54,954 nt of DNA from Pseudomonadota bacterium (GTDB taxonomy: Bacteria; Pseudomonadota; Alphaproteobacteria; UBA11222). Positions 1 to 15,413 of the stretch are shown here, one piece after another (within the stretch, counting starts at the first letter, position 1; each line of letters starts with the position of its first letter). The notes below the pieces were generated by a model that saw only the letters and a program-made list of their open reading frames with translations, did not search any database and had not been told where the DNA came from. The stretch is from assembly GCA_036758605.1 (NCBI GenBank), contig DAIOWE010000004.1, positions 1-54,954 on the forward strand, read 5' to 3'. A program made the translations under genes and the position numbers.

Positions 1-311
1 GCAAAATAGGCCGCATCGCCCTTATTCGCACCATCGGGTTTGCGCACTTCTGCACTGCCGCCATGGCAATCCACGCATCCCAGGATTACGCCCGGACTTG
101 TGTGCATGCTGGCTGCATCACTTGATGTGTGACAGCTTTGACAGCCTGCGCTTTTCGCTGCCGCCTCCTCCTGACTTTGCGATGCGGGTGCAGGCGGCGT
201 TGCGTTATAGGTAATCTCGCGAGGCTTTTCTTCGCCAGATGCATAGACGGCGCCGGCGCCCGGCAAAGTCAGGCCAACCACAAGCATCAGTAATCGGAAA
301 AAAACACGCAT
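1..311 (-). CDS. multihaem c-type cytochrome, N-terminal part only (gene runs off the left edge)
   Basis: It is absent from the ORF track because there is no stop inside the window. The reverse-strand ATG at 311-309 gives MRVFFRLLMLVVGLTLPGAGAVYA/SGEEK, a signal peptide. Two CxxCH haem-c motifs (CQSCH, CVDCH) follow within about 100 aa. The ATG shares one base with the TGA of the upstream gene (TGATG). Confidence 0.8.
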   Translation of the reverse strand, partial: MRVFFRLLMLVVGLTLPGAGAVYASGEEKPREITYNATPPAPASQSQEEAAAKSAGCQSCHTSSDAASMHTSPGVILGCVDCHGGSAEVRKPDGANKGDAAYF

Positions 312-2260
312 CAATAAGCCAATGTAATATTTGCGAGCAGCGTATAGAAATGCTCATTATCTGTATGATACAAATCCTTGAACCCCTTGCCCGGCAGCAG
401 CGCTGCATAAGATAGCCGCATCACCACATTCTGGCTCATCATTGGCCGGTAAATTGCCGATGCCGACATGTCCCAGCCGATACCGTTGCGAATTTCACCT
501 TCGTTGCGCATCACCTCCAGCACATCCGTTTCATTGAAATTCAGATGGTTGATATTGGTGGACAGACGCAGTTGCGGCAGCACATCGAAATCGGCGCCAC
601 CGCCCAGCAGCCGCAGCCCCGGATTAACGAAATTTGATTGGCCATGTTCCCTTGACGAACGCAAATCCGGCAGCACCCCATTGCGCTGTGAAAGCGCCAC
701 GCCGCCACCGCCTATAAGCGGAATATTCTGACGAATCCAGAAACTGGTGTCGGCGCCTGCGAATTGCGGGTTCTCAAAGATGGACGAAAAGCCTTTGGAT
801 TTTTCATCGAACGGGTCTTTGTCGCCGCTGGCATACAGGAACGAACCGCGCAGGCGGGTCCAGCTATAATCAACCGAGGGTTCCGCCGCCAGAAAATAAG
901 CGCGGATGTCACTTTTCTCATCCGTGAACAGTGAACCATCTTCTTCGCCATAGGCATAATAGCCCGACACGGTAAGGTTCAAAAGGCCAAAATGGCCATC
1001 GCCATTATAGCCAAAATAGCCCACCTTGTAATCACGCGGACGCTCCAGCCCGGCAGAGGCGGGGCGCTGCAAAAAGCCGTTCTTGTCGTAGAAAAATTTC
1101 TTTTCCGTATTCCGGTTATAGATCGCGGTTATCTGGCTGGTGAAACCCAGCACCGGAAAATCCTGCCAGAAAAGGTTGCCGACAAACACATCATCGTCGC
1201 GGACTTTCTTTCCCAGATCATTCAGGCCGCTATTCGTGTCCTTTTCAAGCCGCCGGAACCATGCCAGATTGTACTGGAATATATTATTGTTGCGTGTGCC
1301 GAACAGGCGCACGCCAGGCTGGTTATCCAGAAACATAAAGCCACGGAAATCTGCGTTGAAGGGCTGAATGCCGACACGGATCGAGTCAAAATCATAGCGC
1401 TCCGACACATTGCGGATATGGTAATCCAGAAATAATTCCTGCATTCCAACATGATTATCCGAACGCGACTTACCCTGTTCCGGATTGCGCCGCAGCAGCC
1501 CCAGTTCTTTGACCTTGGCATAATTATAGTTAAATACCGGGGTAATGCGCAGTTCAAGGTCTGGCGGCTTGAACGCCGTATTGCCTTTGATCAGCGTCAG
1601 ATTGGTAATCAGATTCTGGTTGAAGACATATTGATCGGGCTTACCAAACAGATCATTCGTTCCCGGTCGCGATGTCGTCGCAAAGCCAACAGGAACCGGA
1701 AATGCGCGCGGTTCGTAAACGGTATCAGAAATGACGTTGAGAAGAACAAAGCCGTCCTTTCCAAATATAGGCTTGTCGCCTTTCAGGACATTGTTGTTGT
1801 AAGGGTCATACCATTTCCCCTTGATGCCGAGCCCTTCCAGAATGCGCCAGCGATCAGGCACCGGAACGATGTCGCCACGGGTTTGCAATTCTTCATAAGA
1901 ACGCGCACGCCCTGTGGCGATGGGCGCGCCCTGGCGTTCGCGTGGATCACCGCGCACCGTGTCATCAACCGGTTCTTCGCCGGGACGCGGACGGCGCAGC
2001 ACCTGTGCGACCTGCTGATATTCCGTATTCGGAGTATTGGCGGCAACAGCAACAGATTGCGGCCCGGCGTTCAGATGGGAAGAGGCGCTTGGAGAACCTG
2101 AAAATGCAGCAGGCGATGGTGTTCCCAGTGGCGGCCCAGCGGGAACCAGAGGCGGAATGACGACAGGTATCGCGTCGGGAATTGGCGGCGCAGCTTTACC
2201 CTGCGCCCAACAGGGGGCAACAGATAAAATCAGCAAGAGTGCAGCTATTCCCCCGCGCAT
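311..2260 (-). CDS. secreted protein, putative outer-membrane beta-barrel (family not recognised)
   Basis: The track ORF is 311..2326. I prefer the ATG at 2260 (MRGGIAALLLILSVAPCWA/QG, a clear signal peptide, 1 nt after the upstream stop). A Pro-rich linker is followed by about 550 aa of alternating hydrophobic/polar stretches with Gly/Asn/Asp turns. The protein ends ...LLANITLAY, with a terminal aromatic residue and hydrophobics at -3 and -5, like an OMP beta-signal. Confidence 0.7.
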   Translation of the reverse strand: MRGGIAALLLILSVAPCWAQGKAAPPIPDAIPVVIPPLVPAGPPLGTPSPAAFSGSPSASSHLNAGPQSVAVAANTPNTEYQQVAQVLRRPRPGEEPVDDTVRGDPRERQGAPIATGRARSYEELQTRGDIVPVPDRWRILEGLGIKGKWYDPYNNNVLKGDKPIFGKDGFVLLNVISDTVYEPRAFPVPVGFATTSRPGTNDLFGKPDQYVFNQNLITNLTLIKGNTAFKPPDLELRITPVFNYNYAKVKELGLLRRNPEQGKSRSDNHVGMQELFLDYHIRNVSERYDFDSIRVGIQPFNADFRGFMFLDNQPGVRLFGTRNNNIFQYNLAWFRRLEKDTNSGLNDLGKKVRDDDVFVGNLFWQDFPVLGFTSQITAIYNRNTEKKFFYDKNGFLQRPASAGLERPRDYKVGYFGYNGDGHFGLLNLTVSGYYAYGEEDGSLFTDEKSDIRAYFLAAEPSVDYSWTRLRGSFLYASGDKDPFDEKSKGFSSIFENPQFAGADTSFWIRQNIPLIGGGGVALSQRNGVLPDLRSSREHGQSNFVNPGLRLLGGGADFDVLPQLRLSTNINHLNFNETDVLEVMRNEGEIRNGIGWDMSASAIYRPMMSQNVVMRLSYAALLPGKGFKDLYHTDNEHFYTLLANITLAY

Positions 2261-2261
2261 A

Positions 2262-4286
2262 TTATTTCCCCTCACAGGCGCGCTGTTCACGTGAGTTGAT
2301 AAACGGCGAATACGGACAAGAGACATACCGCAATCGCACCCCAGCGGGCGTCAATTGGTCCGAACGGATCGCAGCGGGCGCATGCGACACACCCGTGCCA
2401 AGACCAATGCTGGCATTGTGCAGCCCCAAAAAGGCCACCATATCATCCTGATCAATGCCATCACCGGAAACCCCAATGGCGCCGACCAGCACCCCGTTTT
2501 TATAGATCGGCGAACTGCCCGCGAAAATCTGCAATCCATTGGCCAGTGGATTCAACCCCGAGCTGTTCGATACGACCGGCGTACATCCAAGGCCGGTGTC
2601 ATTGACGGCGCCATTCCCATCCGGATCAAAATCCCCCCGCCCATCACCGGTCACGTCAAGATTGAGATTCCGCACAAACAAAACGTGGTTGATAATATTG
2701 CCGACAATCAGATCAAATTGCAGACCGGTTGAAAACGGGCTCCAGTTTGCTACAGGTCGGCTTAGCGGACCGTTGCCATTGGTGTTGACCCCATCGGGAT
2801 AAAAAGGCCGCGCCAGATTGCTAATGGCGCGATCCGTATAGGCAATACCGTCAGACAAAGAACCCGGCCCCACAAAAGCCCGCATATTGGCGGCATAATT
2901 AGGCACGGTATACGCATGCCCTGGGATCAAGCCGTTTATCGCATTCGTCACCACCCGGATGGAGGGAAAGACAGCAGGATTTTCCAGATTTGCCGCCGCG
3001 TTCTGTCTGGACATGAAGGCCGCGCTGCGCGCTTTTTGTAGTGACACGTCAATGCCGAAGATCGGCGCATCCGGTGTTCGCGCCTGGCCCAGAACCTGTC
3101 CTTCCGCATCCACAATGGACACCGTAACCTGCGCAAAGCTTTGCAGAGGACGACGAATTTGCGCCCGCGCGCTGGCGGCAACACGCAGTGCATGCCCAAG
3201 GATGGCCGGAACCTCTGTTGCGGTCAGATTCTGACCCGCATTTGCAGCCCCCGGGACAATTGGAATGAACGGCATATCCGCCCCGCTGGTAAGCAAGAAT
3301 GGCACGAATCCCGCAATCGCCGCAACATTTGCATAACCCGGACCATCACTTGCCGCATTTACCGGACGAATACCCGATCCCGACGTCCCATAGGCCTGTC
3401 CTGCAAAGATACCCACATCCGTATAACCGGTAACCGCAATAAAACCGGTCGGCGCAACCAGGGGCGCCAGCGCCGGGTTGGAAGCAAGTGAACGCACACT
3501 CGCATCCGTATAACGCAGCGTCTTGCCTTCTACAGTTATTCTGCTGGCCAGAATATCCGCAGGTGGCGCGAAACCCGATGAACCCGCAATGGCGATGATT
3601 TCATCCAGATCCGCATCAATATTGCTAACGTCAGCGTCCAGACCATAGACGCCATCCGCCGCTACGCCTATGCCACCGACAACAGCGCCGCCAATATACA
3701 GGGGCAAGCCCCCCGGATCAGCGGACAGGCCAAGAGGTGAACGCTTGGGCCCACGAAATTGATCCGGCGGCACTGGGCTGGCGCCATTAAAGAAACGGCG
3801 ATTGAGATCCGAACAGGGAAGCTGGCTGAACTGCACCCCGAACAGTGGCCCGCCAGGAGCAAGGACTTCACCGGGATTGAAATTTTGCTGCACGATCTGG
3901 CTTGCGGTGCGTGTACTGAATGCATTGCCCGATGAAGACAGATATGCCCCGGTAACGGCCTTTGATATTGCCGCCAGCGTCGAAGGCACTAGCCCCGCAA
4001 GGCCATCAATGCCAGTACGTATCGTGCGCCCGGATGTCACCGCAACAGTGGAAGGGGCACCGGGCATCTGATAAACCGCCAACACATTGCCAACCCGGTC
4101 GGTCACAGCAATGGTGGCAGGACGGCCACGCACAGACGCTTCCTGCGCCGCCTGGGAAACGACACGATAAATATCAGGTCCGGACAAACTCTGCGCACCG
4201 GCCGAACGGCTGCCAGCCAGAATTGAGCCGATCGCAATCAGACCCGTTATGAAAGCCTTTGCCGTCATTCGCTGATTCTTTTTCAT
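2262..4286 (-). CDS. secreted protein with two GlcG/HbpS-like (DUF336, putative haem-binding) domains
   Basis: The track ORF is 2262..4322. The ATG at 4286 gives the signal peptide MKKNQRMTAKAFITGLIAIGSILAGSRSAGA/QS. Two regions carry GlcG-type signatures. The first is ATIAVTDRVGNVLAVYQM ... GGLPLYIGGAVVGGIGVAADG. The second is VTVSIVDAEGQVLGQART ... SLQKARSAAF ... GSSPIYKNGVLVGAIGVSGDGIDQDDMVA. Confidence 0.7.
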   Translation of the reverse strand: MKKNQRMTAKAFITGLIAIGSILAGSRSAGAQSLSGPDIYRVVSQAAQEASVRGRPATIAVTDRVGNVLAVYQMPGAPSTVAVTSGRTIRTGIDGLAGLVPSTLAAISKAVTGAYLSSSGNAFSTRTASQIVQQNFNPGEVLAPGGPLFGVQFSQLPCSDLNRRFFNGASPVPPDQFRGPKRSPLGLSADPGGLPLYIGGAVVGGIGVAADGVYGLDADVSNIDADLDEIIAIAGSSGFAPPADILASRITVEGKTLRYTDASVRSLASNPALAPLVAPTGFIAVTGYTDVGIFAGQAYGTSGSGIRPVNAASDGPGYANVAAIAGFVPFLLTSGADMPFIPIVPGAANAGQNLTATEVPAILGHALRVAASARAQIRRPLQSFAQVTVSIVDAEGQVLGQARTPDAPIFGIDVSLQKARSAAFMSRQNAAANLENPAVFPSIRVVTNAINGLIPGHAYTVPNYAANMRAFVGPGSLSDGIAYTDRAISNLARPFYPDGVNTNGNGPLSRPVANWSPFSTGLQFDLIVGNIINHVLFVRNLNLDVTGDGRGDFDPDGNGAVNDTGLGCTPVVSNSSGLNPLANGLQIFAGSSPIYKNGVLVGAIGVSGDGIDQDDMVAFLGLHNASIGLGTGVSHAPAAIRSDQLTPAGVRLRYVSCPYSPFINSREQRACEGK

Positions 4287-4290
4287 GGTG

Positions 4291-4734
4291 TCAATTTGTC
4301 CGCATGACATCAAAATAACCAAATTTCAGCTCCCCATTGGCCCGGTAATAGACCGTAACCCTGATGGGAAAGTTGAGCGATGACAGATCCTGATTTAATA
4401 TTTTGAAGTTAATCCGGCCTTCAGACTGCGGAAAACCGTTGTCAATAAGATGGGCGGGATCAATATCCCAGAGCCGGTACAAGCCCTGCCGGTCGCGCAT
4501 CAGGGGCGGACTTCCTGAAAGCTGCACAACGACATGCGTGGATTCCGCACTGTCACCGCCCAGGGCAACCTGCCTTTCCACGACCCCGTTAAGCAACCCG
4601 GACAGGACAACTGGCGCCAGTTGAACGCCTGTTGTGGTCAATTCCTGTGCTGAAACCCCAGATGCGGCACAGACAAACAGCACCGCACCGCAAAATCCGG
4701 TTCTGATTTTTCGGAATGTTTCCTGTGGCAACAT
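4291..4734 (-). CDS. small secreted protein of unknown function
   Basis: The ORF is 147 aa with an N-terminal signal peptide (...GAVLFVCAASGVSA/QE). It lies 3 nt after the upstream stop and 4 nt before the next start. I recognise no domain. Confidence 0.65.
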   Translation of the reverse strand: MLPQETFRKIRTGFCGAVLFVCAASGVSAQELTTTGVQLAPVVLSGLLNGVVERQVALGGDSAESTHVVVQLSGSPPLMRDRQGLYRLWDIDPAHLIDNGFPQSEGRINFKILNQDLSSLNFPIRVTVYYRANGELKFGYFDVMRTN

Positions 4735-4737
4735 TAC

Positions 4738-6504
4738 CTAGTTCTTTCCCGGTAACGGCATATCGCCCTGCAACACCGCCGCCTCATCTGCCTGCCGGTT
4801 CCCATGCGCCTTTACTTCCCCCATCCTGGGTGTGCCGGGCAGGTGGAAATCATGGCATGTAATACAGGTCGACGGAACCTTGTTGCTGGCGCTTTCCCCG
4901 CCATGACAATTCTGGCAAACAGCAATCTTTGGCAGTAGAACATCAGTTGCCTTTTTGGAGTTTTCCGCAGCATGGCATGAATCGCACTTCAACATATCAG
5001 AATGCGCAGAATGATCAAAGCGGCCACGCGGCAACCAATTTTTGTTCACAATCGCCGGAACGACAGCCCAGTTCAGAGGGCCATTTCCAGGGCCGGATGA
5101 AACTTCGTGGCATTTGCCGCACATGGTCTTGCCAAAAGACTGATCCGCCACCCGCTGCGCCTGCTGGTCCGCCCATGCCCGGGGATCGGTCTGCCGCTGC
5201 GAGGGAATAGCCGTGTTTTCTCCGGGACGCCGCCTGTCTGTCTCCTGCGCCGGATCTTGTGCGTCGTTCATGCCCCCGCGCAGTCCATAATCACTATAGA
5301 ATTCACGAATCAGCATTTGCGCATTGTCCGCTTGGCCATGCGGCAATGTCCGGTCGGGGCGTCTGGGGTCAAACACCAGCTGATGGCAACGTTCGCACGT
5401 TCCCTCCATTCCGATAGGATCAAAACTTGCCGCCCCTTTGGGAAGCTGATGACAGCCATTACAGTCCAGCGTCTCCTTACCCTTCGGACCCCGGATACCT
5501 TCTTTTTTCAGGTGCAGTTCATGCGGAAATTTCAGCCCGGAATTCTCAACCAGCGCCGCAGGGTCATCCCGTGTAACACGCCTGAATGTACGAGTGGCCG
5601 CATCTGAAACAATATTGGGCCGGAATTCCGGATGCTTCTGATCAAATTTGCCTACATTTTTGATGTTCGCGCCGGGAAGGTTTTTTTCAATTTCGCTGTG
5701 ACAGTCCGTACAAAAACTTTCCTTATTGATGGTAATGGCCTGATCCCCATTATGTTCCCTGTGACAGCCATTGCAGGTGTTTGCGGTCAGGTCTTTGAAC
5801 TGCGGAATACTGGCAATTTCTGCTTTGACGACATCAAAATGATTCGTGATCGGGGCATGACAGGAAAGGCAGGCTCCGTCCAAAACCTGAACGAATGGCT
5901 TCTGGTGGCACAGATTGCACTGATCAGATATGAACCGGTGCGGCGTCGAAATTGGGCCACTATCCCAAACCGAATCAAAACGCGCGCCAACCGTTTTTTC
6001 CGCTGTCGTCTCGGTATGCTGCGAATAAAATAAAACCGGCATTACCAGAAACATTGCCAAAACGATGAGAATGCCAAACCAGGACCAGAGTCTGCGGCTT
6101 AAACCATGATCCACCAGACGAACCGTGCTGCGTTTGGCAAGCTGGGCATAATCATCCCCCAGCGGCCGCACCAACTCCACTTCAATGGCAAGATCCTTGC
6201 CTTCGGGCGGTTCGGCAAGTGTTACGTCAAACGGGCCGATGCCAATCACATCACCAATAACGACAGGCCTGCTTCGGGTGGGTTGCCCATTAACGCGCAC
6301 ATCGGAAAGCTTTTCAACTTCGACAAACAGGCCACCTGGACGCTGATGTATGACCGCATGTTCAAAACGTATGCGTGGATCGGCAAGATAGACTTCCGCA
6401 TTGGTGCTCCGCCCGAAGTGAACGGTTTCAGCAGAGCGCTCCTCGCTTCTGCGTGAAACGCCTCCCTTTTGGCGCCGTGTAAGATATGTGACGAGAATTT
6501 CCAT
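4738..6504 (-). CDS. FHA-like domain / single TM / decahaem c-type cytochrome
   Basis: The N-terminal ~110 aa fits the FHA pattern (VHFGRSTNAEVYLADPRIRFEHAVI...VRVNGQP...GDVIGIGPF), although the usual Ser before the His is replaced. One TM helix follows (LWSWFGILIVLAMFLVMPVLFY). The rest contains ten CxxCH motifs: CNLCH, CLSCH, CNGCH, CTDCH, CNGCH, CERCH, CGKCH, CDSCH, CQNCH, CITCH. Confidence 0.85.
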   Translation of the reverse strand: MEILVTYLTRRQKGGVSRRSEERSAETVHFGRSTNAEVYLADPRIRFEHAVIHQRPGGLFVEVEKLSDVRVNGQPTRSRPVVIGDVIGIGPFDVTLAEPPEGKDLAIEVELVRPLGDDYAQLAKRSTVRLVDHGLSRRLWSWFGILIVLAMFLVMPVLFYSQHTETTAEKTVGARFDSVWDSGPISTPHRFISDQCNLCHQKPFVQVLDGACLSCHAPITNHFDVVKAEIASIPQFKDLTANTCNGCHREHNGDQAITINKESFCTDCHSEIEKNLPGANIKNVGKFDQKHPEFRPNIVSDAATRTFRRVTRDDPAALVENSGLKFPHELHLKKEGIRGPKGKETLDCNGCHQLPKGAASFDPIGMEGTCERCHQLVFDPRRPDRTLPHGQADNAQMLIREFYSDYGLRGGMNDAQDPAQETDRRRPGENTAIPSQRQTDPRAWADQQAQRVADQSFGKTMCGKCHEVSSGPGNGPLNWAVVPAIVNKNWLPRGRFDHSAHSDMLKCDSCHAAENSKKATDVLLPKIAVCQNCHGGESASNKVPSTCITCHDFHLPGTPRMGEVKAHGNRQADEAAVLQGDMPLPGKN

Positions 6505-6510
6505 ATGCCG

Positions 6511-7344
6511 CTACCAGTAAAAGTACACAGCGACAATATGCGCGATCAGGGCGCCAAGCAGTGCAAACGACAGCGGCACATGCACATAAAGCCAGATATC
6601 CAGAAGCGACTTGTACCGCACATCGCGCCTGGCGCGGGCCAGCAGTTCTTCCTTACGCGCCAATAAGCCCAAAAGCGCGCGAAATCCTTCCGCCTGTCCC
6701 GGCGGCGCATTGTCCGCCAGATGGCGTACCGCACGATTTGCATCCCTGGTGGCGCAATCAGGATCGTCGCCGGAAAGTTGACGGATCACACCCCCGCCAA
6801 TGCGGGTGTTTTGCGCCGCGCTCAGAACAATCTGATTAATTTCATCCCCAAGCGTCAGCGCAGCCTCGCGGCATTCTGCATCCAGATCAGAAATTTCGTG
6901 CATCATTTGCACCAGCGTCATGCCGCGCCGGTTATTGGTCATCAATTCCGGCACACGCATATACACAAACAACCCAAATACGCCGCTCAGGATAACAAGC
7001 AGCATAAGAACATAAGCCAGCGTATGGACATTCCAGCCGAACTGAAACCCCGTGTGCAGGGTGCCGATAATAATCAGCGCCAGGCCGAGATAAATATGCG
7101 CACTCAACCAGTCCTCAACCGGCGCCCCGCCCGCACCGTAACGGCGCTTGCGAATGCCAAACCACATCAGCCACAGGATCAGAAAAGCCCCAAAACCGCC
7201 CAGGGCGTAACCAAGCCATGTGCCGCCATTGGGGACGCCATAATCAGGTTCATGAATCCAATAGAGCAGCAGCGCAAGAGCAACGATCGCTGCCGCCCAC
7301 TTTAGATATCTAAAACCCCTGAATACCAGGATGGACTGATGCAT
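6511..7344 (-). CDS. integral membrane protein, putative di-haem b-type cytochrome
   Basis: The 277-aa product has five hydrophobic helices. Helix 3 (SAHIYLGLALIIIGTLHTG) and helix 5 (YVHVPLSFALLGALIAHIV) each carry an exact H-x13-H pair. An approximately 120-aa soluble loop separates helices 4 and 5. The start lies 43 nt after the upstream stop, and the stop lies 6 nt before the next start. Confidence 0.7.
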   Translation of the reverse strand: MHQSILVFRGFRYLKWAAAIVALALLLYWIHEPDYGVPNGGTWLGYALGGFGAFLILWLMWFGIRKRRYGAGGAPVEDWLSAHIYLGLALIIIGTLHTGFQFGWNVHTLAYVLMLLVILSGVFGLFVYMRVPELMTNNRRGMTLVQMMHEISDLDAECREAALTLGDEINQIVLSAAQNTRIGGGVIRQLSGDDPDCATRDANRAVRHLADNAPPGQAEGFRALLGLLARKEELLARARRDVRYKSLLDIWLYVHVPLSFALLGALIAHIVAVYFYW

Positions 7345-7387
7345 TTACTTCCCCGCAACCCCTCAAGGCATATCCGCAATCTGGTGT

Positions 7388-9793
7388 TTATAATCCCTGC
7401 GATACAACTTTGAAAAATTCTGATGGTTCCACCCGTAATGCCGCGCCGGTGGGACATGCCCGCACACAGGCCGGTCCGCCCAAAACATCTTTACACATGT
7501 CACATTTTACCGCTTTCTTTGGCCCGCCGCCTTCTTTTTTATTGCTGTCCGGCCCCCACTTGCCAGTGACTGCCTGTCCAGGACCGGGTCCCCGGCCAAA
7601 TAAAAGCCATTGCAGAAGACCCGGCTTCTTTGGCAGCTTCGCTGCCATATGAATAACGCCATATGGGCAATTGCGCTCACAGTTTCCACAGCCGATACAG
7701 CTATCTGTAATATACACCTCGCCATTGGCGTTACGGCGCAATGCGTCGGGCGGACAATCGACCATGCAATGCGGATGCTCGCAATGCCTGCACGATGTCG
7801 GAACGTGAAGCGTCTGATAGGTTGGGCCTGCTTCGCGGTTAAGGCGTGACGTGCCCTGATGGGTTTCGGCGCAGGCCTTTTCACAATTATCACAGCGCAC
7901 GCACAGCGCCTCATCAATCAGCAGCACGTCAGTTGCTTCACCCAGCCCCTGTTCGACCAGAAACTGGATGATACCGCCTGCCTCGGGCTGTTCGGTGGTT
8001 TCGATATTTTCCAGCATGCGGCCACGATAGCGCGCCTCAATAGTTCGCCGGACAGCTTCATTGCGCGACATCAGCGCCTGAAACGGCACACCGTCCAGAC
8101 GCAAGGCCTCAACCGCAACCGCCGCACGGATCGTTGCAGAGCGCGGCGCATTGCTGATCAGCGCCATTTCCCCAACATAATTGCCTGCGGCAACATAGGA
8201 GATGACGGCTTCCTTGCCGCCCACTTCACGCGAAACCGTCACCGAACCGCGCTGGATAAGATACAGGCAATCGCCTACATCCCCTTCGCGGAACAATACG
8301 GCACCCTGCTCAAATTTCTCTACTTTAACCGTGTGAATAAGATCTTCCAGATCGGACAAGGGAATGCCCGGTGCAATATATGTCTGAATTTGACGCCCGA
8401 CCGCGACCTCATCCATGACGCGCTTTACGGATTCAACCGAATTGATCAGCTTGATCATCGACCGGCGCGGAGTCTCGATCAGCAACGAAGGCTTGCTTGC
8501 CATCACCGTTGCGGTGCGCCGGCGGCCCGACAAAAGGCCCATCTCACCGAAAAAGGCGCCTTTTCCCAATGAGACAATCCTGGTTTCGTCATCGGAGTCG
8601 ACCTGAATATTCACTTCACCGTCAACGATGGAATAAAAACTGTTGGTGTAGTCATTACGCTCAAAGATAATGTCCCCGCCGCGCGGCGCATGCACATTAC
8701 TGTCCAGCAGGAATTCACGTAATTGCAGTGTCGTAAGCCCTGACAATAGCGGCACCGATTCCTGAATGAGCGCCAGAACTTCGGACACCGTCCTGTTCCC
8801 CAGAATATTGGCGAATTTCTGTTCCAGCAGCGGTTCATCCGCAGGCTTGAGCTGATTGCCCTGAATATATTCAATAACCTCATATCCCTGGTTCATGGCC
8901 TGTTTGATCAGCGGATATCCAGCCAGCGCCCCGATTACATACAGGCCGGGAACATTCGATTCATACTGACCGGAAAGCTCGGGCAATGAGGAAGGATCGG
9001 AGTTGGGAAACTTGATGCCGCAGGTTTCGACAAATTTACGCGGCGGCGAAGCCCCCAGGCGGGCGATAATCCGGTCGCACCTGACTTTGGTTTCGCCTTG
9101 CGGCGTCTTTACGACAATGCCGTCATCATCCACCCGCACCGTATCGGCGTTGTAGACACATTCAATCTGTTTTTTTTCTATGGCGGTCGTGATCGCCGTC
9201 AGATTACCCTGCTTGACACGGGCAAATTCACTGCCCCGGTTGAGGATAATGACATTGTTCTGCCTGGTTAGCGCCAGTGCATTTTCAATGCCCGCATCGC
9301 CCGCCCCCACCACAACAATGGTTTCATCGGAATATTCATCCGGATCATTGAGCTGATACTGCACCCAGTCGCGGTCCTGCCCCGGGACGCCAAGCAACCG
9401 GATGTTGCCCTGTAAACCAATGGCAAACACAACATATTCAGCGTTGATTCTTGTCCCATCCGAAAGTTTCAGCGTGAAATCGCCTTTGGCGCCGCTGATA
9501 GCGGTGACCTCGGAGTTAAAACGGACATTTACCTTCAGATCGGCGATCTGCTTTTCCCATGTGCCAAGAATATCCTCGCGAATGCCGATCTGGAATGAGA
9601 GTTCGCTGCGCAGCGGCAACACATCCGGCGTCGCCATCACCAGCTTGCCCTTCTGGTATTTGTAGATGGTATCGGAGACATGATCGCGCTGTTCCAGCAG
9701 CACATGCGAGACACCTATGGCGGCCGCCCGCCCTGCGGCGCTGAGACCGGCCGGCCCTGAACCGACAATTGCGACTTTTACCCGTTCCTGCAT
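7388..9793 (-). CDS. FAD/NAD(P)-dependent oxidoreductase (thioredoxin-reductase-like) fused to 2 cyclic-nucleotide-binding domains and a multi-[4Fe-4S] ferredoxin domain
   Basis: The 801-aa product starts with VAIVGSGPAGLSAAG (FAD Rossmann fold) and also has VVVGAGDAGIENA (a second dinucleotide fold). Two cNMP-binding signatures are present (FFGEMGLLSGRRRTATVMA and YVGEMALISNAPRSATIRA). There are four Cys clusters: CVRCDNCEKAC, CRHCEHPHCMVDCP, CIGCGNCERNCP and CDMCKD..GGPACVRACP. No signal peptide is present. Confidence 0.85.
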   Translation of the reverse strand: MQERVKVAIVGSGPAGLSAAGRAAAIGVSHVLLEQRDHVSDTIYKYQKGKLVMATPDVLPLRSELSFQIGIREDILGTWEKQIADLKVNVRFNSEVTAISGAKGDFTLKLSDGTRINAEYVVFAIGLQGNIRLLGVPGQDRDWVQYQLNDPDEYSDETIVVVGAGDAGIENALALTRQNNVIILNRGSEFARVKQGNLTAITTAIEKKQIECVYNADTVRVDDDGIVVKTPQGETKVRCDRIIARLGASPPRKFVETCGIKFPNSDPSSLPELSGQYESNVPGLYVIGALAGYPLIKQAMNQGYEVIEYIQGNQLKPADEPLLEQKFANILGNRTVSEVLALIQESVPLLSGLTTLQLREFLLDSNVHAPRGGDIIFERNDYTNSFYSIVDGEVNIQVDSDDETRIVSLGKGAFFGEMGLLSGRRRTATVMASKPSLLIETPRRSMIKLINSVESVKRVMDEVAVGRQIQTYIAPGIPLSDLEDLIHTVKVEKFEQGAVLFREGDVGDCLYLIQRGSVTVSREVGGKEAVISYVAAGNYVGEMALISNAPRSATIRAAVAVEALRLDGVPFQALMSRNEAVRRTIEARYRGRMLENIETTEQPEAGGIIQFLVEQGLGEATDVLLIDEALCVRCDNCEKACAETHQGTSRLNREAGPTYQTLHVPTSCRHCEHPHCMVDCPPDALRRNANGEVYITDSCIGCGNCERNCPYGVIHMAAKLPKKPGLLQWLLFGRGPGPGQAVTGKWGPDSNKKEGGGPKKAVKCDMCKDVLGGPACVRACPTGAALRVEPSEFFKVVSQGL

Positions 9794-9948: not shown

Positions 9949-9962
9949 TTGACATGGATCAA
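9949..9962 (-). promoter_or_regulatory. candidate FNR/FixK/Crp-family box (TTGA-N6-TCAA)
   Basis: The sequence TTGACATGGATCAA is a perfect TTGA-N6-TCAA palindrome (9/10 to TTGAT-N4-ATCAA on the minus strand). It lies about 155-170 nt upstream of the 9793 start codon and overlaps the ccmI stop codon. Confidence 0.3.
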
Positions 9963-11377
9963 GGTTTTCCCAATTCTTGCAGCGCGTCGGACACTGACCG
10001 GTATTCATCGCTGTCCGGCGGTAAATTCCCGCGCAATTTTTCCCAATAGCCGCGCGCTGCGGCCTTTTCTCCATTTTGCGCCGAGAATACCCCCATGAAC
10101 CACAATGCCTGATTATTTTCTGGCTCAACGGTCAGTATTTTCTGCATGGTTTGGGCAAAACGCGCAGTAATGGGGCTGGTCTCGCCCGCTGCCTGCAACG
10201 CCTCGCCATAGGCCGACAGCGCGTCCATGCGCCCGGGTCCGGCCTCTACCGCCCGGCCAAGCGCCGCAAGACTGTCAGCTTTGCGGCCCAGAACCTCATA
10301 AGCCCGCGAAAGTTGCAACCAGCCATCCACATTGTCTTTATCAGTGGACTCCTGCCGCGCGGCAAGGCGCGCCACCATGCCCTCGATCATCTGTTTGCGA
10401 TCACCTTCCGGCATTGCGGCGGCGGCGGCCATATCCCCGGCGTCGGGTCCGGATGGCGCCCTGGACTTTGTCGCCGATGGCGCAGCAGCCTGTTCCGCCA
10501 GCAGACTTTCCAGATCAACTTTCAGCAAATTGGCCACTTCCTGCGCCTGTTCGCGCACTGCGCCCGCCCAGGGCGCGCCGGGTTCCGCCTGTTTTAGCAG
10601 CGCTACCCAGTCTGCAAGCGCCCCCCCGGCGTCTCCCGCCTGCGCCTTTGCCAGCCCCAGATAAAACTGCGAACGCGGCTCTGCCGGGATGATTTTCAGC
10701 ACCCTGCGAAACTGTGCCTGGGCATCGTCCCCCACCAGGCCATTATTGCCCTGCACGAGGGTTTCCGCATATTCCGCCAGCACCATGGGCGCGGGTTTGT
10801 CGCCCGCCAGCGCCACCGCCTTGGCATAGGCCGCAATGGCCCTGGGAAAATCTTCAAGCGTCACATAAGACCGGCCCAGCAGCATCCAGCCCTGGATATC
10901 ATCAGGGCTTGCAGCCAGGCGCGCGGCGAGTTTTTCGGTCAGCGCCACCATATCCATATGTTCGGGATCAGCAGCGGTGACCTGTGTTGAATTCCGGTTC
11001 GGCGTAAGATTTGGGCTGCCTATCGTCAGATAGACGCCAAACGCAATAACAGACAGCAATAGCGCGACAGCCGCCGCGCCCGCCCGGCGGCCATTTTTCG
11101 ACCGGCCCCCCGCACCCGCTATTTCCAGTGCGTTATCCTCGTCATCCGCGCGCAGCATGCGGCGCTCTATTTCCAGGCGCGCCGATTTCGCTTCGATGTC
11201 GGAAATCACATTGCGGGCCAGTTCGCCATCGAGTTCGGCCAGTTGCTGCCGATATACCTCAAGCGCATGCGCGCCACGCGACGCGCCGCCCTCGCGTACG
11301 CGCAATAGTGGTATGGCGATCAGGGCCGTCGCGCCCACCGCCATGGCTGTGATGATGATCCAGAAAATTACCGGCAT
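9959..11377 (-). CDS. ccmI: c-type cytochrome biogenesis protein CcmI (CycH)
   Basis: The N-terminal TM helix is IFWIIITAMAVGATALIAIPLL. A charged coiled segment and a second TM helix (AAAVALLLSVIAFGVYLTIG) follow. The long Ala/Leu-rich TPR-like periplasmic domain is typical of alphaproteobacterial CycH. Confidence 0.8.
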   Translation of the reverse strand: MPVIFWIIITAMAVGATALIAIPLLRVREGGASRGAHALEVYRQQLAELDGELARNVISDIEAKSARLEIERRMLRADDEDNALEIAGAGGRSKNGRRAGAAAVALLLSVIAFGVYLTIGSPNLTPNRNSTQVTAADPEHMDMVALTEKLAARLAASPDDIQGWMLLGRSYVTLEDFPRAIAAYAKAVALAGDKPAPMVLAEYAETLVQGNNGLVGDDAQAQFRRVLKIIPAEPRSQFYLGLAKAQAGDAGGALADWVALLKQAEPGAPWAGAVREQAQEVANLLKVDLESLLAEQAAAPSATKSRAPSGPDAGDMAAAAAMPEGDRKQMIEGMVARLAARQESTDKDNVDGWLQLSRAYEVLGRKADSLAALGRAVEAGPGRMDALSAYGEALQAAGETSPITARFAQTMQKILTVEPENNQALWFMGVFSAQNGEKAAARGYWEKLRGNLPPDSDEYRSVSDALQELGKP

Positions 11378-11422
11378 GGCCGAACCGGTAGCACACTGCG
11401 CCGCGCGAGGTAAGTTGGAATT

Positions 11423-12172
11423 TCAGTTCTTCCTGTCCGGATCATCCAGCTCCGCAAGCCGCAATTTGCTTTTATGCGTTTCTATCTTTTCATCCGTGGT
11501 CAAACGCTGCCCCTGAAAATAATATTTCTGCCAGGCCTGCTTGATTGTCTCGGGGTCATGCTTGCCCAGATTGGCCAGAAAATCGGTACGGCTTTTCATC
11601 CAGGCGTCAAATTCCGCCTTAAGTTCCGGTTCTGCATCCAATACCCGCATTTCCGGCTGATAGGATTCCAGCATATCGTGATGGATCGGGATGATGGTGC
11701 AAAAGGGTTCCCCCTTTTCAAAACGCACTATACCCGGCGCCGTCATTTTCCAGTTCATCGTGAATGGAAATGGCAGCCAGTCCGTTTCAATGATGCCTGA
11801 CAATGCATAGATACCATGTTTGGGCCGGTTCATCGGCGCCGTCGCCAGCAGATCCCAACCCGGCGGGGTGCGAAACATATAGCCCACATGGAATGTGACC
11901 ACCCCCATGGAGAAATGCGATAAAACCAGATGTTCAATATGCGCGAAATTATCCAGCGCGCGAATTTGAATGGCCTCTTTTTCAGGCTGGCCATTCCAGG
12001 CAATCTCGAACGACGCCGGGCTGAGAATTTCCCAGCCATAGCCATTGGCGATATTGAGTGGCAGACAGCGATATGCAAAACGATCCGGCGAAGCGTCCAT
12101 CCAGTCCCGCGTTGGGCTGGCGGGGACCATGGCTGGCGGGTTGGGAACCAGTTTGTAGCAAAGCAGCTTCAT
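11423..12172 (-). CDS. conserved hypothetical protein (DUF6065-like)
   Basis: This 249-aa ORF (MKLLCYKLVPNPP...FAYRCLPLNIANGYGWEIL) matches my recollection of a conserved alphaproteobacterial family of unknown function. There is no signal peptide. Confidence 0.6.
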   Translation of the reverse strand: MKLLCYKLVPNPPAMVPASPTRDWMDASPDRFAYRCLPLNIANGYGWEILSPASFEIAWNGQPEKEAIQIRALDNFAHIEHLVLSHFSMGVVTFHVGYMFRTPPGWDLLATAPMNRPKHGIYALSGIIETDWLPFPFTMNWKMTAPGIVRFEKGEPFCTIIPIHHDMLESYQPEMRVLDAEPELKAEFDAWMKSRTDFLANLGKHDPETIKQAWQKYYFQGQRLTTDEKIETHKSKLRLAELDDPDRKN

Positions 12173-12178
12173 TTACGC

Positions 12179-12781
12179 CTATGCCCGCCCGGATGCGCCG
12201 GACAGATTGCCGGGATTAATACCAAGCTTGGCCAGCGCCGCGTCCCATTTGCCTTCCAGGCCGGCGGAAAAAATCAGATCCATATCGGCGTTGCAATGCA
12301 GCCAGGCGTTGGCCTGAATTTCATATTCCAACTGCCCAGGCCCCCAGCCGGAATAGCCCAGCGCCACCAGAACTTTTCGTGGCCCCCTGCCCTCCGCCAT
12401 GTCGCGCAGAATATCCATACTGGTGGTCAGGCCCACATGCTCCTTAACCGGCATGGTGACGCCTTTCAGAAAATAGTCATCCGTGTGCAGAATAAATCCG
12501 CGCCCGGTTTCAACAGGTCCACCCAGTTGAATACGGATATGTTCCGTACCAGGCGTGCATTTCATGTCCAGTTGCTCCAGCAGATCAGGAAACGAAATCG
12601 CGCCTGCATGTTTATTGATGATCAGCCCCAGCGCGCCGTCAGGCGAATGCGCGCACAGATAAATAACTGTGCGCCTGAAACGCGGATCGCCCATATTTGG
12701 CATGGCGATGAGTAACTTTCCCGCCAATGACTGGCCCCAGCCGCCGCCACCGCCACCGCCTGGTGTTGCATCAAAGGGCAT
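12179..12781 (-). CDS. yqgE: YqgE/AlgH family protein (UPF0301)
   Basis: The motifs LLIAMPNMGDPRFRRTVIYLCAHSPDGALGLIINK and GYSGWGPGQLEYE are characteristic of the family. Confidence 0.8.
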   Translation of the reverse strand: MPFDATPGGGGGGGWGQSLAGKLLIAMPNMGDPRFRRTVIYLCAHSPDGALGLIINKHAGAISFPDLLEQLDMKCTPGTEHIRIQLGGPVETGRGFILHTDDYFLKGVTMPVKEHVGLTTSMDILRDMAEGRGPRKVLVALGYSGWGPGQLEYEIQANAWLHCNADMDLIFSAGLEGKWDAALAKLGINPGNLSGASGRA

Positions 12782-12799
12782 TTCGAACCCTCCCTGAGC

Positions 12800-13531
12800 T
12801 TATGGTTTCAGATTCCTGCCAAACATATCGAACAGCCGTTCCCAGTGACGCTCCGCCGATGGCTTGTCATACATGCCCGTCCGGCTCGGAAAGGCAAAGC
12901 CATGATCCGCCCCGGGATACCATTCGATCCGGTAATTTATATTTAGTCCCGACAGATGCTTTTCAAGCGCGTCAATCTGTTCCTTTGGTGCGTAACCATC
13001 ATGTTCCGCGCAGCCAAAATACATCTCGCCCTTGATGTCCCTGGCGAACAGATGCGGGCTATCCTTCTGGTCCGTGATCAGACTGACGCCATATATGCTT
13101 GCTGAAACCGCCACCCGGTCCGCATGGCGCGACGCCGCCATAAAGGCGAAGGGGCCGCTCATGCAATAGCCAACCACGCCCACCTTGCCTTTGCGCGCTG
13201 CCGGCTGTGTATCGGCATAGGCCAGCATGGCGCCCACATCCTGCATCACCAGATCATTGGTAAGCGAGCGCATCAGTTCAAACATGCGCTTGCCGCCACC
13301 GGGATCCCGGCTCATGTCAAATTCGGGCGTTGTGCGGTAATAGAGATTGGGCAGGACCACATAATATCCGGCCGTGGCGATGCGCCGCGCCATATCATGC
13401 AGTTCTTCGCGCTTGCCCGGCGCATCCATCAGAAACAAGACCACCGGATGCGGCCCGCCTTCTTCCGGATGGGTGACGAAGCTGTTCATCATGCCGTCTT
13501 TGGTTTTAATGTCGATATGATGCTCTATCAT
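12800..13531 (-). CDS. dienelactone hydrolase family protein
   Basis: The 243-aa alpha/beta hydrolase has a G-Y-C-M-S-G nucleophile elbow (Cys-type, as in DLH) and a C-terminal ADHGF motif. Confidence 0.75.
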   Translation of the reverse strand: MIEHHIDIKTKDGMMNSFVTHPEEGGPHPVVLFLMDAPGKREELHDMARRIATAGYYVVLPNLYYRTTPEFDMSRDPGGGKRMFELMRSLTNDLVMQDVGAMLAYADTQPAARKGKVGVVGYCMSGPFAFMAASRHADRVAVSASIYGVSLITDQKDSPHLFARDIKGEMYFGCAEHDGYAPKEQIDALEKHLSGLNINYRIEWYPGADHGFAFPSRTGMYDKPSAERHWERLFDMFGRNLKP

Positions 13532-14015: not shown

Positions 14016-15413
14016 ATGGAAAAAGCCTTTAATCTCCAGTTCTACATTGATCAATTCACGCTTGCGCGCAACTGGCTGGTGGAAAACGCGCTGGCGCTCA
14101 GCATTGCCACGTTCGGTCAACTGCTGGTCATTGGACTGTTGTTTATCGCGGTCCAACCTGTGGCAACCTATCTGCGCGGACGGCTTGACCAGGTGCCTGA
14201 ATTACCGCGTTTCGAACCGCCATTGCAGTGGATAGAAACGCCACTGCGCTGGATAGCCGCGACGATTACGCCGCTGGTACGGCCGATTCTATGGCTTTTT
14301 CTGCAATGGCTGACGCTTGGCGTCGTAAATTATTTCGAACTGCCGAACCAACTCATCCTGACCGCCGCGAGCCTGACTACCGCCTGGATCGTTATTCGCT
14401 TCAGCACATCGTTTGTCCGTAACGAGACGGTATCACGGCTTATCTCTGTAATCGCATGGACAATCGCAGCGCTGAACATCGTCGGCCTGTTAACGCCTAC
14501 GCTGGAGCTACTGGACAGCAAGGCGTTCACTGTGGGCGCATTGCGTGTCTCCGGCTTGACCGTCATCAATACATTGCTGTCGCTGACAATAACATTGTGG
14601 CTGGCGGCAATGGCCGGGCGGTTCCTCGAACACCGGGTGATGGCGTCCCTCAGCCTGTCGCCGTCTATGCAGGTGCTGATTGTAAAGCTGTTCAAGATCT
14701 TCGTTGTGGCCATTGCCGTCATGCTGGCGCTGTATGCGGTCGGCATTGATCTGACCATTTTTGCGGTTTTCAGCGGGGCCATTGGCATCGGCATCGGGTT
14801 TGGCCTGCAGAAGGCGGTGGCCAACTTTGTTAGCGGCATCACAATTCTGCTGGAAAACTCCATCAAACTGGGGGACGTGATTACCGTTGGTGATACCTAT
14901 GGCTGGGTCAATAGCCTCGGCGCCCGGTTTGTTTCCGTGCTAACACGCGACGGCGTGGAGTATCTGATCCCTAATGAGGATTTGATTACGCAACAGGTGG
15001 TCAACTGGTCACACAGTGACGACCGCGTACGGCTAAAGGCGCCATTCGGCGTTGCCTATAGCTCCAATCTGCGCCAGGTGATCGCATTATGTCTGGAGGC
15101 CGCGGCCGAATCGCCCCGCGTCATTGATGAGCCAAAACCTGTCTGTTTGCTGATGGGATTCGGGGACAGTTCCGTGGATTTTGAATTACGTTTCTGGATT
15201 CGCGATCCCCGCAATGGCTTCTCCAATGTAAAAAGCGACGTGCTGCTGCGCGTTTGGGACAAATTTCAGGCCAACAATATCTCCATGCCGTTCCCACAGC
15301 GCGACATTCACATCATATCATCGCCGAAAGACGGCGAAACTGGACCACAAAATGATCGCACCGCCATGCAAACCGTTGACGGCGCCGGTGCTGAGAATGT
15401 CGCGGCAAAATAG
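14016..15413 (+). CDS. mechanosensitive ion channel family protein (MscS-like), copy A
   Basis: The 465-aa product has several N-terminal TM helices. It carries the MscS core GIGIGFGLQKAVANFVSGITILLENSIKLGDVITVGDTYGWVNSLGARFVSVLTRDGVEYLIPNEDL. Confidence 0.85.
   Translation: MEKAFNLQFYIDQFTLARNWLVENALALSIATFGQLLVIGLLFIAVQPVATYLRGRLDQVPELPRFEPPLQWIETPLRWIAATITPLVRPILWLFLQWLTLGVVNYFELPNQLILTAASLTTAWIVIRFSTSFVRNETVSRLISVIAWTIAALNIVGLLTPTLELLDSKAFTVGALRVSGLTVINTLLSLTITLWLAAMAGRFLEHRVMASLSLSPSMQVLIVKLFKIFVVAIAVMLALYAVGIDLTIFAVFSGAIGIGIGFGLQKAVANFVSGITILLENSIKLGDVITVGDTYGWVNSLGARFVSVLTRDGVEYLIPNEDLITQQVVNWSHSDDRVRLKAPFGVAYSSNLRQVIALCLEAAAESPRVIDEPKPVCLLMGFGDSSVDFELRFWIRDPRNGFSNVKSDVLLRVWDKFQANNISMPFPQRDIHIISSPKDGETGPQNDRTAMQTVDGAGAENVAAK

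Follow-up and report, generated by a model that had tools for sequence, protein, structure and literature searches.

The routes of extracellular electron transfer known so far have quinol dehydrogenases as their entry point and are found in specialists of metal respiration. The seven-gene operon that we describe here, at positions 1 to 9793 of a 54,954-nt stretch from an alphaproteobacterium of the lineage UBA11222 (assembly GCA_036758605.1, contig DAIOWE010000004.1; the whole stretch is referred to as the window), instead appears to pair a cytoplasmic NAD(P)H flavo-iron–sulfur (Fe–S) protein with a transmembrane haem relay of its own and some 20 c-type haems. We tentatively interpret it, with slightly less than even confidence, as a modular envelope electron-transfer system related to Ptd that would move electrons outward from NAD(P)H, independently of quinones, to an acceptor at or beyond the outer membrane.

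The core formed by genes A, B and C of this operon has been noticed twice before, on both occasions solely in silico. From bioinformatics and metatranscripts only, Elbon, Stewart and Glass (bioRxiv 10.1101/2023.11.21.568154) reported an operon, ptdABCDEFG, from marine Alphaproteobacteria and from further phyla. They give its products as a pentahaem protein that has a beta-sandwich (PtdA), the porin PtdB, a flavohaemoprotein-like FAD/NAD(P) oxidoreductase (PtdC), a periplasmic, c554-like tetrahaem protein (PtdD), a cyclic nucleoside monophosphate (cNMP)-binding protein with 4Fe-4S clusters (PtdE), a ferric-reductase-like transmembrane (TM) protein (PtdF) and a membrane-associated or periplasmic decahaem protein (PtdG). 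The second description comes from a preprint on Ferrigenium straubiae (10.64898/2026.01.22.701106), in which an FHA–nonahaem cytochrome (NHC) is clustered with a 5-TM protein and a [4Fe-4S] protein.

Gene content and relation to described systems

An open reading frame (ORF) check of the window bore out the coordinates, spacing and product list given in an earlier note on this sequence: seven co-directional ORFs, A to G, lie tightly packed on the minus strand, with a ccmI-like gene upstream. Gene A (7388..9793) encodes an 801-aa cytoplasmic flavo-Fe–S protein, B (6511..7344) a 277-aa 5-TM inner-membrane protein that may serve as a di-haem b transmembrane relay, and C (4738..6504) a 588-aa protein with a cytoplasmic FHA-like domain, a single TM helix and a periplasmic decahaem c domain. 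They are followed by D (4291..4734), a signal-peptide protein of 147 aa; E (2262..4286), a secreted protein of 674 aa counted from its ATG, with tandem HbpS-like/GlcG (DUF336) domains; F (311..2260), a predicted outer-membrane beta-barrel of 649 aa from its ATG; and G (1..311), which is cut by the window edge after its first 103 codons. From A to G the intergenic gaps are 43, 6, 3, 4, 1 and −1 nt, values that assume ATG starts at 4286 for E and at 2260 for F; longer ORFs started by TTG or ATG are also present. The TGA of F overlaps the ATG of G, and the spacing suggests that the seven genes are translationally coupled. Another contig (L090), 99.9% identical in DNA over the operon, supplies the complete G and, 46 nt beyond it, an unrelated hydrolase gene, so that the operon comprises exactly seven genes.

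Scanning one genome per GTDB species with an alignment of eight C homologues yielded 80 loci; loci are identified below by L numbers where they need to be told apart. Loci L017–L019 fit the ptd description gene for gene, and their decahaem proteins are 36–38% identical to C of the window (38% for L017, from Pacificispira). By this comparison C is a PtdG-like decahaem protein, B, which stands beside it, is PtdF-like, and A is a PtdE-like cNMP/Fe–S protein; the proposed logic, from cytoplasm to outer membrane, is also the same. The window differs in lacking the PtdA pentahaem and the PtdB porin, in place of which it carries the non-homologous E, F and G. No PtdD tetrahaem lies within its 55 kb, the separate PtdC is replaced by a Pyr_redox_2 domain of TrxR/YpdA-like type fused into A, and A has four Fe–S motifs as against the "two" quoted for PtdE. 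Judged from sequence, three of the defining Ptd components (PtdE, PtdF and PtdG) thus have a counterpart in the operon and four (PtdA, PtdB, PtdC and PtdD) do not. None of the 80 locus contigs appears in Table S7 of Elbon et al., and the link that we draw to Ptd and to Ferrigenium is one of matching architectures and of homology to ptd-type loci, not of accession-level identity.

The Ferrigenium cluster resembles the window in the succession of a cytosolic FHA domain, one TM helix and a periplasmic multihaem domain, in a 5-TM protein that has no annotated family and in a cytosolic Fe–S protein. It differs in having nine haems rather than ten and in that no E-F-G neighbours are reported, and its homology to the window proteins would follow from its description. 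The combination of genes in the window had at first been thought undescribed. This does not hold for the A/B/C core, which matches the descriptions of PtdE, PtdF and PtdG and of the Ferrigenium cluster; the outer part, E-F-G, remains new, and we found neither this module nor the pairing of an HbpS-like protein with an AlgE-like barrel and a decahaem–propeller protein described in the literature searched. New in this work are the E-F-G cassette, the existence of mutually exclusive cassettes, the TrxR-type NAD(P)H module in its fused form, the barrel model, and how large the family is and how wide its range of hosts, culturable aerobes included.

The operon also recalls the porin–cytochrome conduits, as the earlier note had pointed out, in its architecture but not in its protein families. 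As in MtrCAB, PioAB and MtoAB and in the Pcc and Ext systems of Geobacter, a barrel gene stands beside genes for multihaem cytochromes, and a periplasmic decahaem protein has a wire-like haem density. Unlike the Mtr, Pio and Mto proteins, F is AlgE-like with about 18 strands, as against about 26 for the MtrB type, C falls outside the MtrA/DmsE family, and G is not a surface lipoprotein of the MtrC/OmcA type. Electron entry differs from that of Mtr- and Pcc-type systems in not running through a quinol dehydrogenase such as CymA, ImcH or CbcL; here the expectation from the first inspection of the sequence stands. The cytoplasmic NAD(P)H/flavin/Fe–S protein is the obligatory partner of B and C. 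With regard to the Geobacter Ext proteins (extHIJKLMNOPQS), G is only a distant relative of ExtM, a 12-haem protein (GSU2935; PMC5877670), and the operon lacks the bc-type genes ExtO/P. We accordingly liken the operon to a porin–cytochrome conduit and to a two-component NOX in how it may work, and assign it to neither.

Conservation and distribution of the cluster

The 80 species-level genomes with loci belong to the Alpha-, Beta- and Gammaproteobacteria. The presence of each family was scored by tblastn; 75 loci have enough flanking sequence to judge the adjacency of B and C, and 51 are fully flanked. B adjoins C in 75/75 loci, the ptd-type L017–L019 included, and among the fully flanked ones A, B and C occur together in 50/51 and E, F and G in 43/51, a co-localization that agrees with the conserved, multi-compartment redox operon initially proposed. 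A gene for a c554-like tetrahaem protein, which we call H, stands beside the cluster in 40 of these 51 loci; the 55-kb window contains no H homologue. At least four gene orders are found. The window's clade shares ABCDEFG with Nisaea and marine Rhodospirillaceae; BCEFGHA, with A at the far end, is the order in Betaproteobacteria, Casimicrobiaceae for example; in 20 Sphingomonadales ABC and HEFG are convergent; and Lysobacterales have ABCEFG(H). The recurrence of one gene set in several classes puts the arrangement well outside what chance would produce, and its retention through rearrangement is strong evidence of functional linkage.

E-F-G is absent from seven loci (L017–L020, L024, L043 and L046). 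The set of a pentahaem protein (5 CxxCH, 641 aa), a different porin-like protein and the tetrahaem protein is carried by these seven loci and by no others. In tblastn searches the PtdA- and PtdB-like proteins of L017 matched nothing in the window or in any E-F-G locus, and no sequence similarity was found between F and the PtdB-like porin or between G and the PtdA-like pentahaem protein. Since the pentahaem and porin genes occur exactly where E-F-G is missing, we regard the two sets as mutually exclusive outer cassettes on one inner module. The cytoplasmic end can be exchanged as well. In the verrucomicrobial locus L006, E, F and G are present and A is split into an FNR-type reductase (FAD_binding_6/NAD_binding_1/Fer2) and a cNMP+Fer4 protein, an arrangement that corresponds to the separate PtdC and PtdE of Elbon et al. 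By sequence, the NAD(P)H module of A has here been replaced by a non-orthologous one. That an unrelated NAD(P)H oxidoreductase substitutes in this locus argues that electron exchange between NAD(P)H and Fe–S clusters is the required function. That a single inner module is found with either of two outer cassettes (E-F-G or PtdA/B), and with either of two NAD(P)H modules, unrelated in each case, provides a concrete, testable framework.

The system is very common, with members in Alpha-, Beta- and Gammaproteobacteria, Verrucomicrobia and others, cultured aerobes included. B has more than 5,200 homologous clusters at 90% identity and F more than 7,200, and an exhaustive search of a 50%-identity library returned 1,641 representatives of C at E ≤ 1e-30. 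The full window-type set is present in the cultured Nisaea acidiphila and Oceanibacterium hippocampi; further cultured hosts are Erythrobacter colymbi, E. sanguineus, E. tepidarius, Porphyrobacter sp. AAP60, Sphingoaurantiacus capsulatus and Pseudomarimonas salicorniae. Nisaea acidiphila, Oceanibacterium hippocampi, the Erythrobacter species and Pseudomarimonas salicorniae thus offer culturable hosts. Several records of metagenome-assembled genomes with this proteobacterial-type cluster (L044, L069, L018, L021, L023, L019 and L024) carry the labels Klebsiella pneumoniae, Synechococcus sp., Mesoflavibacter, Marinimicrobia or Legionellales. Mis-binning or mislabelling of the contigs is the probable cause, and the names are then not those of true hosts.

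The inner module

Pfam and NCBIfam place in A a Pyr_redox_2/3 domain, two cNMP_binding domains (E = 7e-41; PF00027, 138.6 bits, two domains) and four Cys4 Fe–S motifs; A has no signal peptide. The N-terminal FAD/NAD(P)H domain is YpdA/TrxR-like, with a PDB match to Bdr (7a7b, 2.6e-22). At the other end of the protein, residues 624–796 align end to end with residues 5–175 of HycB (7z0s_B, 2.7e-17), and the four Cys4 motifs span C631 to C780 in this one domain of ~170 aa, with 16 cysteines. These 16 residues and both GxGxxG motifs are at least 95% conserved across 59 homologues, as are both phosphate-binding cassettes of the cNMP domains (Gly-Glu...Arg-x-Ala; G416/E417/R426 and G541/E542/R551/A553), whose conservation makes nucleotide gating of A plausible.

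In its 16 cluster cysteines within a HycB-aligned domain, A resembles the four-cluster ferredoxins HycB, NrfC, DmsB and PsrB, and like those subunits its ferredoxin domain is expected to dock on a membrane partner. Unlike them, the domain shares its polypeptide with a flavin domain and two cNMP domains and is cytoplasmic, without a Tat signal, and its partner is a putative haem-b protein that is not related to NrfD/PsrC. A conserved hydrophobic, Gly/Pro-containing insert (...LLQWLLFGRGPGPG...) separates the third Fe–S motif from the fourth (window 7568–7700, A residues ~715–760); in it, W729, G733, G735, P738 and G739 are at least 95% conserved. This insert could be a loop that docks to the membrane or to B. 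PSORTb placed PtdE at the "cytoplasmic membrane" in the study of Elbon et al. (bioRxiv 10.1101/2023.11.21.568154).

Five hydrophobic helices are seen in B, and the positive-inside rule places its N terminus and a ~110-aa helical insert between TM4 and TM5 on the cytoplasmic side. Two His pairs, H83/H97 in TM3 and H255/H269 in TM5, are each of the form H-x13-H and stand in register across the membrane. All four residues are invariant in 22 sequences and at least 95% conserved in 58, H107 is also invariant, and both pairs are retained in L006 at 25% identity. This is the geometry of a two-haem transmembrane relay, from which we infer that B binds haem b. The same logic is found in NOX/ferric-reductase proteins and MsrQ (PMC5676040, PMC11031084, PMC12525009), where electrons pass from cytoplasmic NAD(P)H through flavin and two transmembrane b-haems to an acceptor on the opposite side, and where His pairs 13 residues apart on two helices are matched by those of B. 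In MsrPQ the acceptor is a periplasmic enzyme (PMC12525009).

The proposal that B forms a di-haem b relay of the NOX/ferric-reductase kind is thus supported by four invariant haem-type histidines and not by homology, so that the resemblance is one of analogy. Against Pfam, B gives nothing at E ≤ 0.01 for Ferric_reduct (PF01794), with sub-threshold scores for Ni_hydr_CYTB (21.6 bits, cutoff 30.1) and DUF4405 (18 bits). Its AF2 model is all-helical (pLDDT 77) and has no Foldseek match in the PDB at E < 0.1, NOX/STEAP/MsrQ-type proteins included, a comparison in which the apo model may be imperfect, and the family profile finds nothing relevant among PDB sequences. After these Pfam, Foldseek and profile results we dropped membership of B in the NOX/ferric-reductase-domain superfamily; the UniRef label of a 61%-identical homologue reads "Ferric reductase like transmembrane component". 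B further differs from that domain in having five TM helices and not six. Unlike in NOX and MsrPQ, the dehydrogenase is a separate TrxR-like/Fe–S protein, and twenty c-haems follow instead of O2 or a molybdoenzyme.

In C a TM helix at ~137–164 joins the FHA-like domain to a periplasmic domain of ~420 aa with 10 CxxCH. All 10 motifs and nine further histidines are invariant in 17 diverse sequences, exactly 10 CxxCH are present in 83/83 C homologues from the loci, and the density of ~42 aa per haem is wire-like. C scores 17.8 bits against the MtrA/DmsE model TIGR03508 (cutoff 192.2) and is therefore not of the MtrA family; against PDB sequences it has only remote domain matches. The FHA-like domain is a weak match to PF00498 (26.1 bits, cutoff 20.7) and also matches a model of the non-phospho, YscD-type FHA domain of type III secretion systems. 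G31-R32 are invariant and H49 is conserved, and the position expected to hold the canonical Ser is variable. Because this Ser is absent and the most distant relatives lack the domain, we read it as probably a docking module to A or B and not a phosphothreonine reader. Of the two cytoplasmic signalling modules proposed earlier, the cNMP domains thus stand by their conserved cassettes, and phospho-signalling through FHA is doubtful. In L007, the most distant relative examined (24% identity; 5471–7339 and 10001–11707), a Ser/Thr protein kinase gene is divergent beside the cluster and the decahaem protein has no FHA domain.

The outer module

F begins with a signal peptide and a Pro-rich, disordered periplasmic N-terminal extension of ~110 residues, and its all-beta region (residues 170–648) is modelled by AF2 as a barrel of ~18 long strands, in agreement with the beta-barrel first suggested from an outer-membrane-like C terminus (...TLAY). 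The best Foldseek match in the PDB is AlgE (3rbh; E = 7.8e-15, prob 1.0, TMt 0.66). The OccK/OprD porins, which have 18 strands, come next, and the 50 matches listed do not include MtrB. Homologues are ~60% identical across orders, and 139 positions are at least 95% conserved in 58 sequences. On this model F is predicted to be an AlgE-like outer-membrane beta-barrel.

The window part of G contains a signal peptide and two CxxCH. The complete protein from L090 has 1255 aa, with 10 widely spaced CxxCH in ~800 residues and then a C-terminal LVIVD beta-propeller (LVIVD E = 3.6e-15). The signal peptide is of type I, with no lipobox Cys, and the cytochrome part has ~80 aa per haem. Among 49 homologues from three proteobacterial classes, 443 of 1254 positions (35%) are at least 95% conserved. 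The match to ExtM (NCBIfam NF040943; 83 bits, E = 1.4e-23) marks G as a distant homologue below the equivalog cutoff of 800, a choice-of-anchor-B match is weak and far below threshold (22.5 bits, cutoff 100), and Pfam gives no significant MtrC/MtrF domain match. LVIVD repeats and choice-of-anchor-B are typical of cell-surface proteins. The Tenderiales uet cluster, a literature lead for the association of LVIVD with multihaem proteins, proved unrelated; the LVIVD protein there is a separate adhesion candidate. A paper on Idiomarina also proved a false lead. In Nisaea acidiphila (L089) a prepilin peptidase gene (Peptidase_A24; 1820–2551) stands directly upstream of A and a gene for a small mono- or dihaem cytochrome c follows G; the peptidase is a possible hint, in one genome only, at a link to type II secretion or pilins.

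E contains three HbpS-like stretches (PF03928, E = 1.5e-20), with four conserved Cys and no conserved His, and its remote PDB matches are PduO-C and EfgA. A lipobox is present in Sphingomonadales and Lysobacterales homologues (L054, L071, L077, L084, L033 and L042; e.g. LASCGGGG or LPACSGG), and a plain signal peptide in the window and in marine Rhodospirillaceae, so membrane anchoring of E differs between lineages. D also has a signal peptide and has no Pfam, NCBIfam or PDB match. It is found only in Rhodospirillales-type clusters (10/51 fully flanked loci) and appears from this distribution to be a lineage-restricted accessory. In Oceanibacterium hippocampi (L088, 12642–13577) its position is taken by an unrelated 311-aa protein with faint CusB/biotin-lipoyl-like matches; the slot between C and E is thus variable. 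Searched against PDB sequences, D, E and G show at most remote domain matches.

Electron flow and alternative readings

We infer the order of carriers, direction, regulation and acceptor as follows. NAD(P)H would be oxidised on the FAD domain of cytoplasmic A, and the electrons would run through its four [4Fe-4S] clusters, with the two cNMP-binding domains as an allosteric gate. B would ferry them over the inner membrane on two stacked b-haems, at H83/H255 on the cytoplasmic and H97/H269 on the periplasmic side. Membrane-anchored C would receive them into the periplasm, its FHA-like domain probably docking to A or B. An exchangeable outer module of F, G and E, joined in many relatives by the c554-like tetrahaem H, would then reduce the acceptor, with electrons reaching the outer module via H where H is present.

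Both the −320 mV of NAD(P)H and a membrane potential that is negative inside favour the outward movement of electrons. We propose the outward direction because of this thermodynamics, because A, B and C form a constant trio, because the NAD(P)H module is exchanged for another of NAD(P)H type and because the His pairs of B are in register. Flow past the quinone pool would consume membrane potential and not build it, which points to a regulated, dissipative electron sink or to the supply of a reductase, and not to a classical respiratory chain. A sink would fit the mostly aerobic hosts and the FixK/FNR-type box (low O2) described below.

Several points weigh against this outward reading. A barrel of 18 strands probably lacks the width to enclose a decahaem protein in the way that MtrB, with 26, encloses MtrA. 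G has no lipobox and no secretion route evident from its sequence, and its extreme conservation would sooner be expected of an enzyme in the periplasm than of a cytochrome on the surface. For B no known haem protein is matched significantly in sequence or in fold, and its predicted haems depend on five invariant histidines. A bulk respiratory role is unlikely, since the hosts are mostly aerobes (Erythrobacter, Porphyrobacter, Sphingomonas, Lysobacterales, Nisaea), and the upstream box is confined to one lineage. The function of Ptd "remains completely unknown" according to Elbon et al. (10.1101/2023.11.21.568154), and the Ferrigenium authors, who likewise call the function unknown, propose inward flow from Fe(II) oxidases to quinone (10.64898/2026.01.22.701106).

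Several of these points would be accommodated if A, B and C supplied electrons in the same way and the terminal reaction were periplasmic, a possibility that we rate as real but rather unlikely. G would then be a soluble multihaem enzyme with its propeller as substrate-binding or catalytic domain, F a substrate-specific outer-membrane channel by which a soluble substrate enters or leaves, and E a subunit with an accessory or cofactor-binding role; PtdA/PtdB would form a cassette for another substrate. The fold of F, which matches the 18-strand substrate channels AlgE and OccK/OprD with MtrB not among the matches listed, fits such a role, as do the absent lipobox of G, its ~80 aa per haem and its 443 highly conserved positions out of 1254, and so does the exclusivity of the outer modules, each of which combines a cytochrome with a barrel of its own. 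Yet F is far more conserved than ordinary diffusion channels and has a long Pro-rich periplasmic arm, which suggests that it holds a protein partner, and the LVIVD repeats and weak choice-of-anchor-B match of G point, by what is generally known of such repeats, to surface exposure. A catalytic-site motif in G (CxxCK, or a haem ligated by Cys, Lys or Tyr) was not identified from sequence. Precedents exist in the MsrPQ system, where a cytoplasmic reductant feeds a periplasmic enzyme through a haem-b membrane protein (PMC12525009), and in Geobacter ExtKL, a characterised polysulfide reductase (PMC13510729) that is the nearest named relative of the PtdA-like pentahaem protein, with weak similarity.

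Multihaem wires are intrinsically reversible, and the chain could run in the other direction, taking up electrons from Fe(II), reduced sulfur, Mn(II) or a cathode via G/F and C and passing them from B to quinone or from A to NAD(P)+. Such uptake has been proposed for the homologous FHA-cytochrome cluster of the Fe(II) oxidiser (10.64898/2026.01.22.701106), and ptd genes occur in nitrite oxidisers and in sulfide-oxidising Alphaproteobacteria of oxygen-deficient zones (10.1101/2023.11.21.568154). We nevertheless consider it quite improbable for this family. Inward electrons would oppose the membrane potential, and reduction of NAD(P)+ by donors in the range of Fe(II) is strongly uphill, with no subunit in the operon that couples to the proton-motive force. 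A recognisable quinone site is not seen in the sequence of B, the constant NAD(P)H-type flavin module, swapped for another in L006, would be left unexplained, and the hosts are for the most part organoheterotrophic aerobes.

A redox-sensing or signalling device, in which the FHA and cNMP domains let the cytochromes inform the cytoplasm of redox conditions in the periplasm or outside the cell, would draw on the two signalling-type domains in the cytoplasmic parts, on HbpS, the namesake of E's family and a redox-sensor accessory in Streptomyces (PMC3754957), and on the Ser/Thr kinase beside the cluster in the distant L007, but we find it very hard to credit because no output domain (kinase, DNA-binding or cyclase) occurs anywhere in the operon, thirty-six redox centres (FAD, 4 Fe–S, 2 haem b, 20 haem c and more) would be more than a sensor needs, the FHA domain lacks its canonical phosphothreonine-binding Ser and distant members have no FHA domain.

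If the outward flow from NAD(P)H is correct, many ordinary bacteria own a regulated route by which reducing power could spill into the periplasm or onto the cell surface, with a bearing on iron and manganese cycling, the production of reactive oxygen, redox balancing at low oxygen and bioelectrochemistry. In its boldest form, which is speculative and which we think unlikely, A-B-C would be a widespread counterpart of NADPH oxidase and ferric reductase built from unrelated parts, a cNMP-gated, quinone-independent electron pump from NAD(P)H to the periplasm, with E-F-G reaching the cell surface of aerobic heterotrophs and aerobic anoxygenic phototrophs. Such a pump could supply the enzyme so far missing for the extracellular production of superoxide, or for Fe(III)/Mn(IV) reduction outside respiration, in Erythrobacter, Porphyrobacter, Sphingomonas, Lysobacterales and Nisaea.

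Upstream region and genomic setting

A putative Crp/Fnr-family (FixK/FNR-type) site, the perfect palindrome TTGATCCATGTCAA (9949..9962, read on the minus strand), stands 169 nt upstream of the ATG of A and overlaps the ccmI stop codon. L001, L002 and L008 have a TTGA-N6-TCAA box in this place too, although their spacers otherwise diverge, and just 20 such boxes occur in 1.59 Mb of loci. In other lineages the box is absent from this position; the 4/75 loci that carry it all belong to the window's clade, which rules it out as a general feature of the family. Within this clade its conservation suggests a regulatory function, namely induction at low oxygen. Promoter and terminator scans and an Rfam search inside the operon gave nothing informative.

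The gene upstream of A (9959..11377, minus strand, 472 aa) encodes a ccmI/cycH-like TPR protein of cytochrome c maturation (PF23914 TPR_CcmH_CycH, E = 2.7e-32), is co-directional with the operon and lies 165 nt from A. A ccmI-like gene flanks the cluster in 35/87 loci, co-directional or divergent, and in L003 the whole ccm operon adjoins it. We rejected the idea that the operon is itself part of cytochrome maturation, ccmI being merely a neighbour and the whole ccm operon being separate in L003. Beside ccmI, at window positions 11423–13531, genes for a DUF6065 protein, an AlgH-like DUF179 protein and a dienelactone hydrolase follow in the same order in L001, L002 and L090; this block appears to reflect local synteny, with no evident link to the operon.

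Elsewhere the window encodes MetRS, the delta' subunit of DNA polymerase III, thymidylate kinase (Tmk), PBP5, TamA/TamB, NhaA and four MscS-type channels. These housekeeping flanks and an even composition rule out the origin of the operon from a mobile element or island. The TamA (Omp85/POTRA) and TamB pair at 30274–35369, which serves outer-membrane protein assembly, lies 20 kb from the operon and is probably housekeeping. The four genes for mechanosensitive channels of the MscS family (14016–15413, 17332–18603, 37073–38482 and 39148–40404) all fall within 26 kb, an unusual density.

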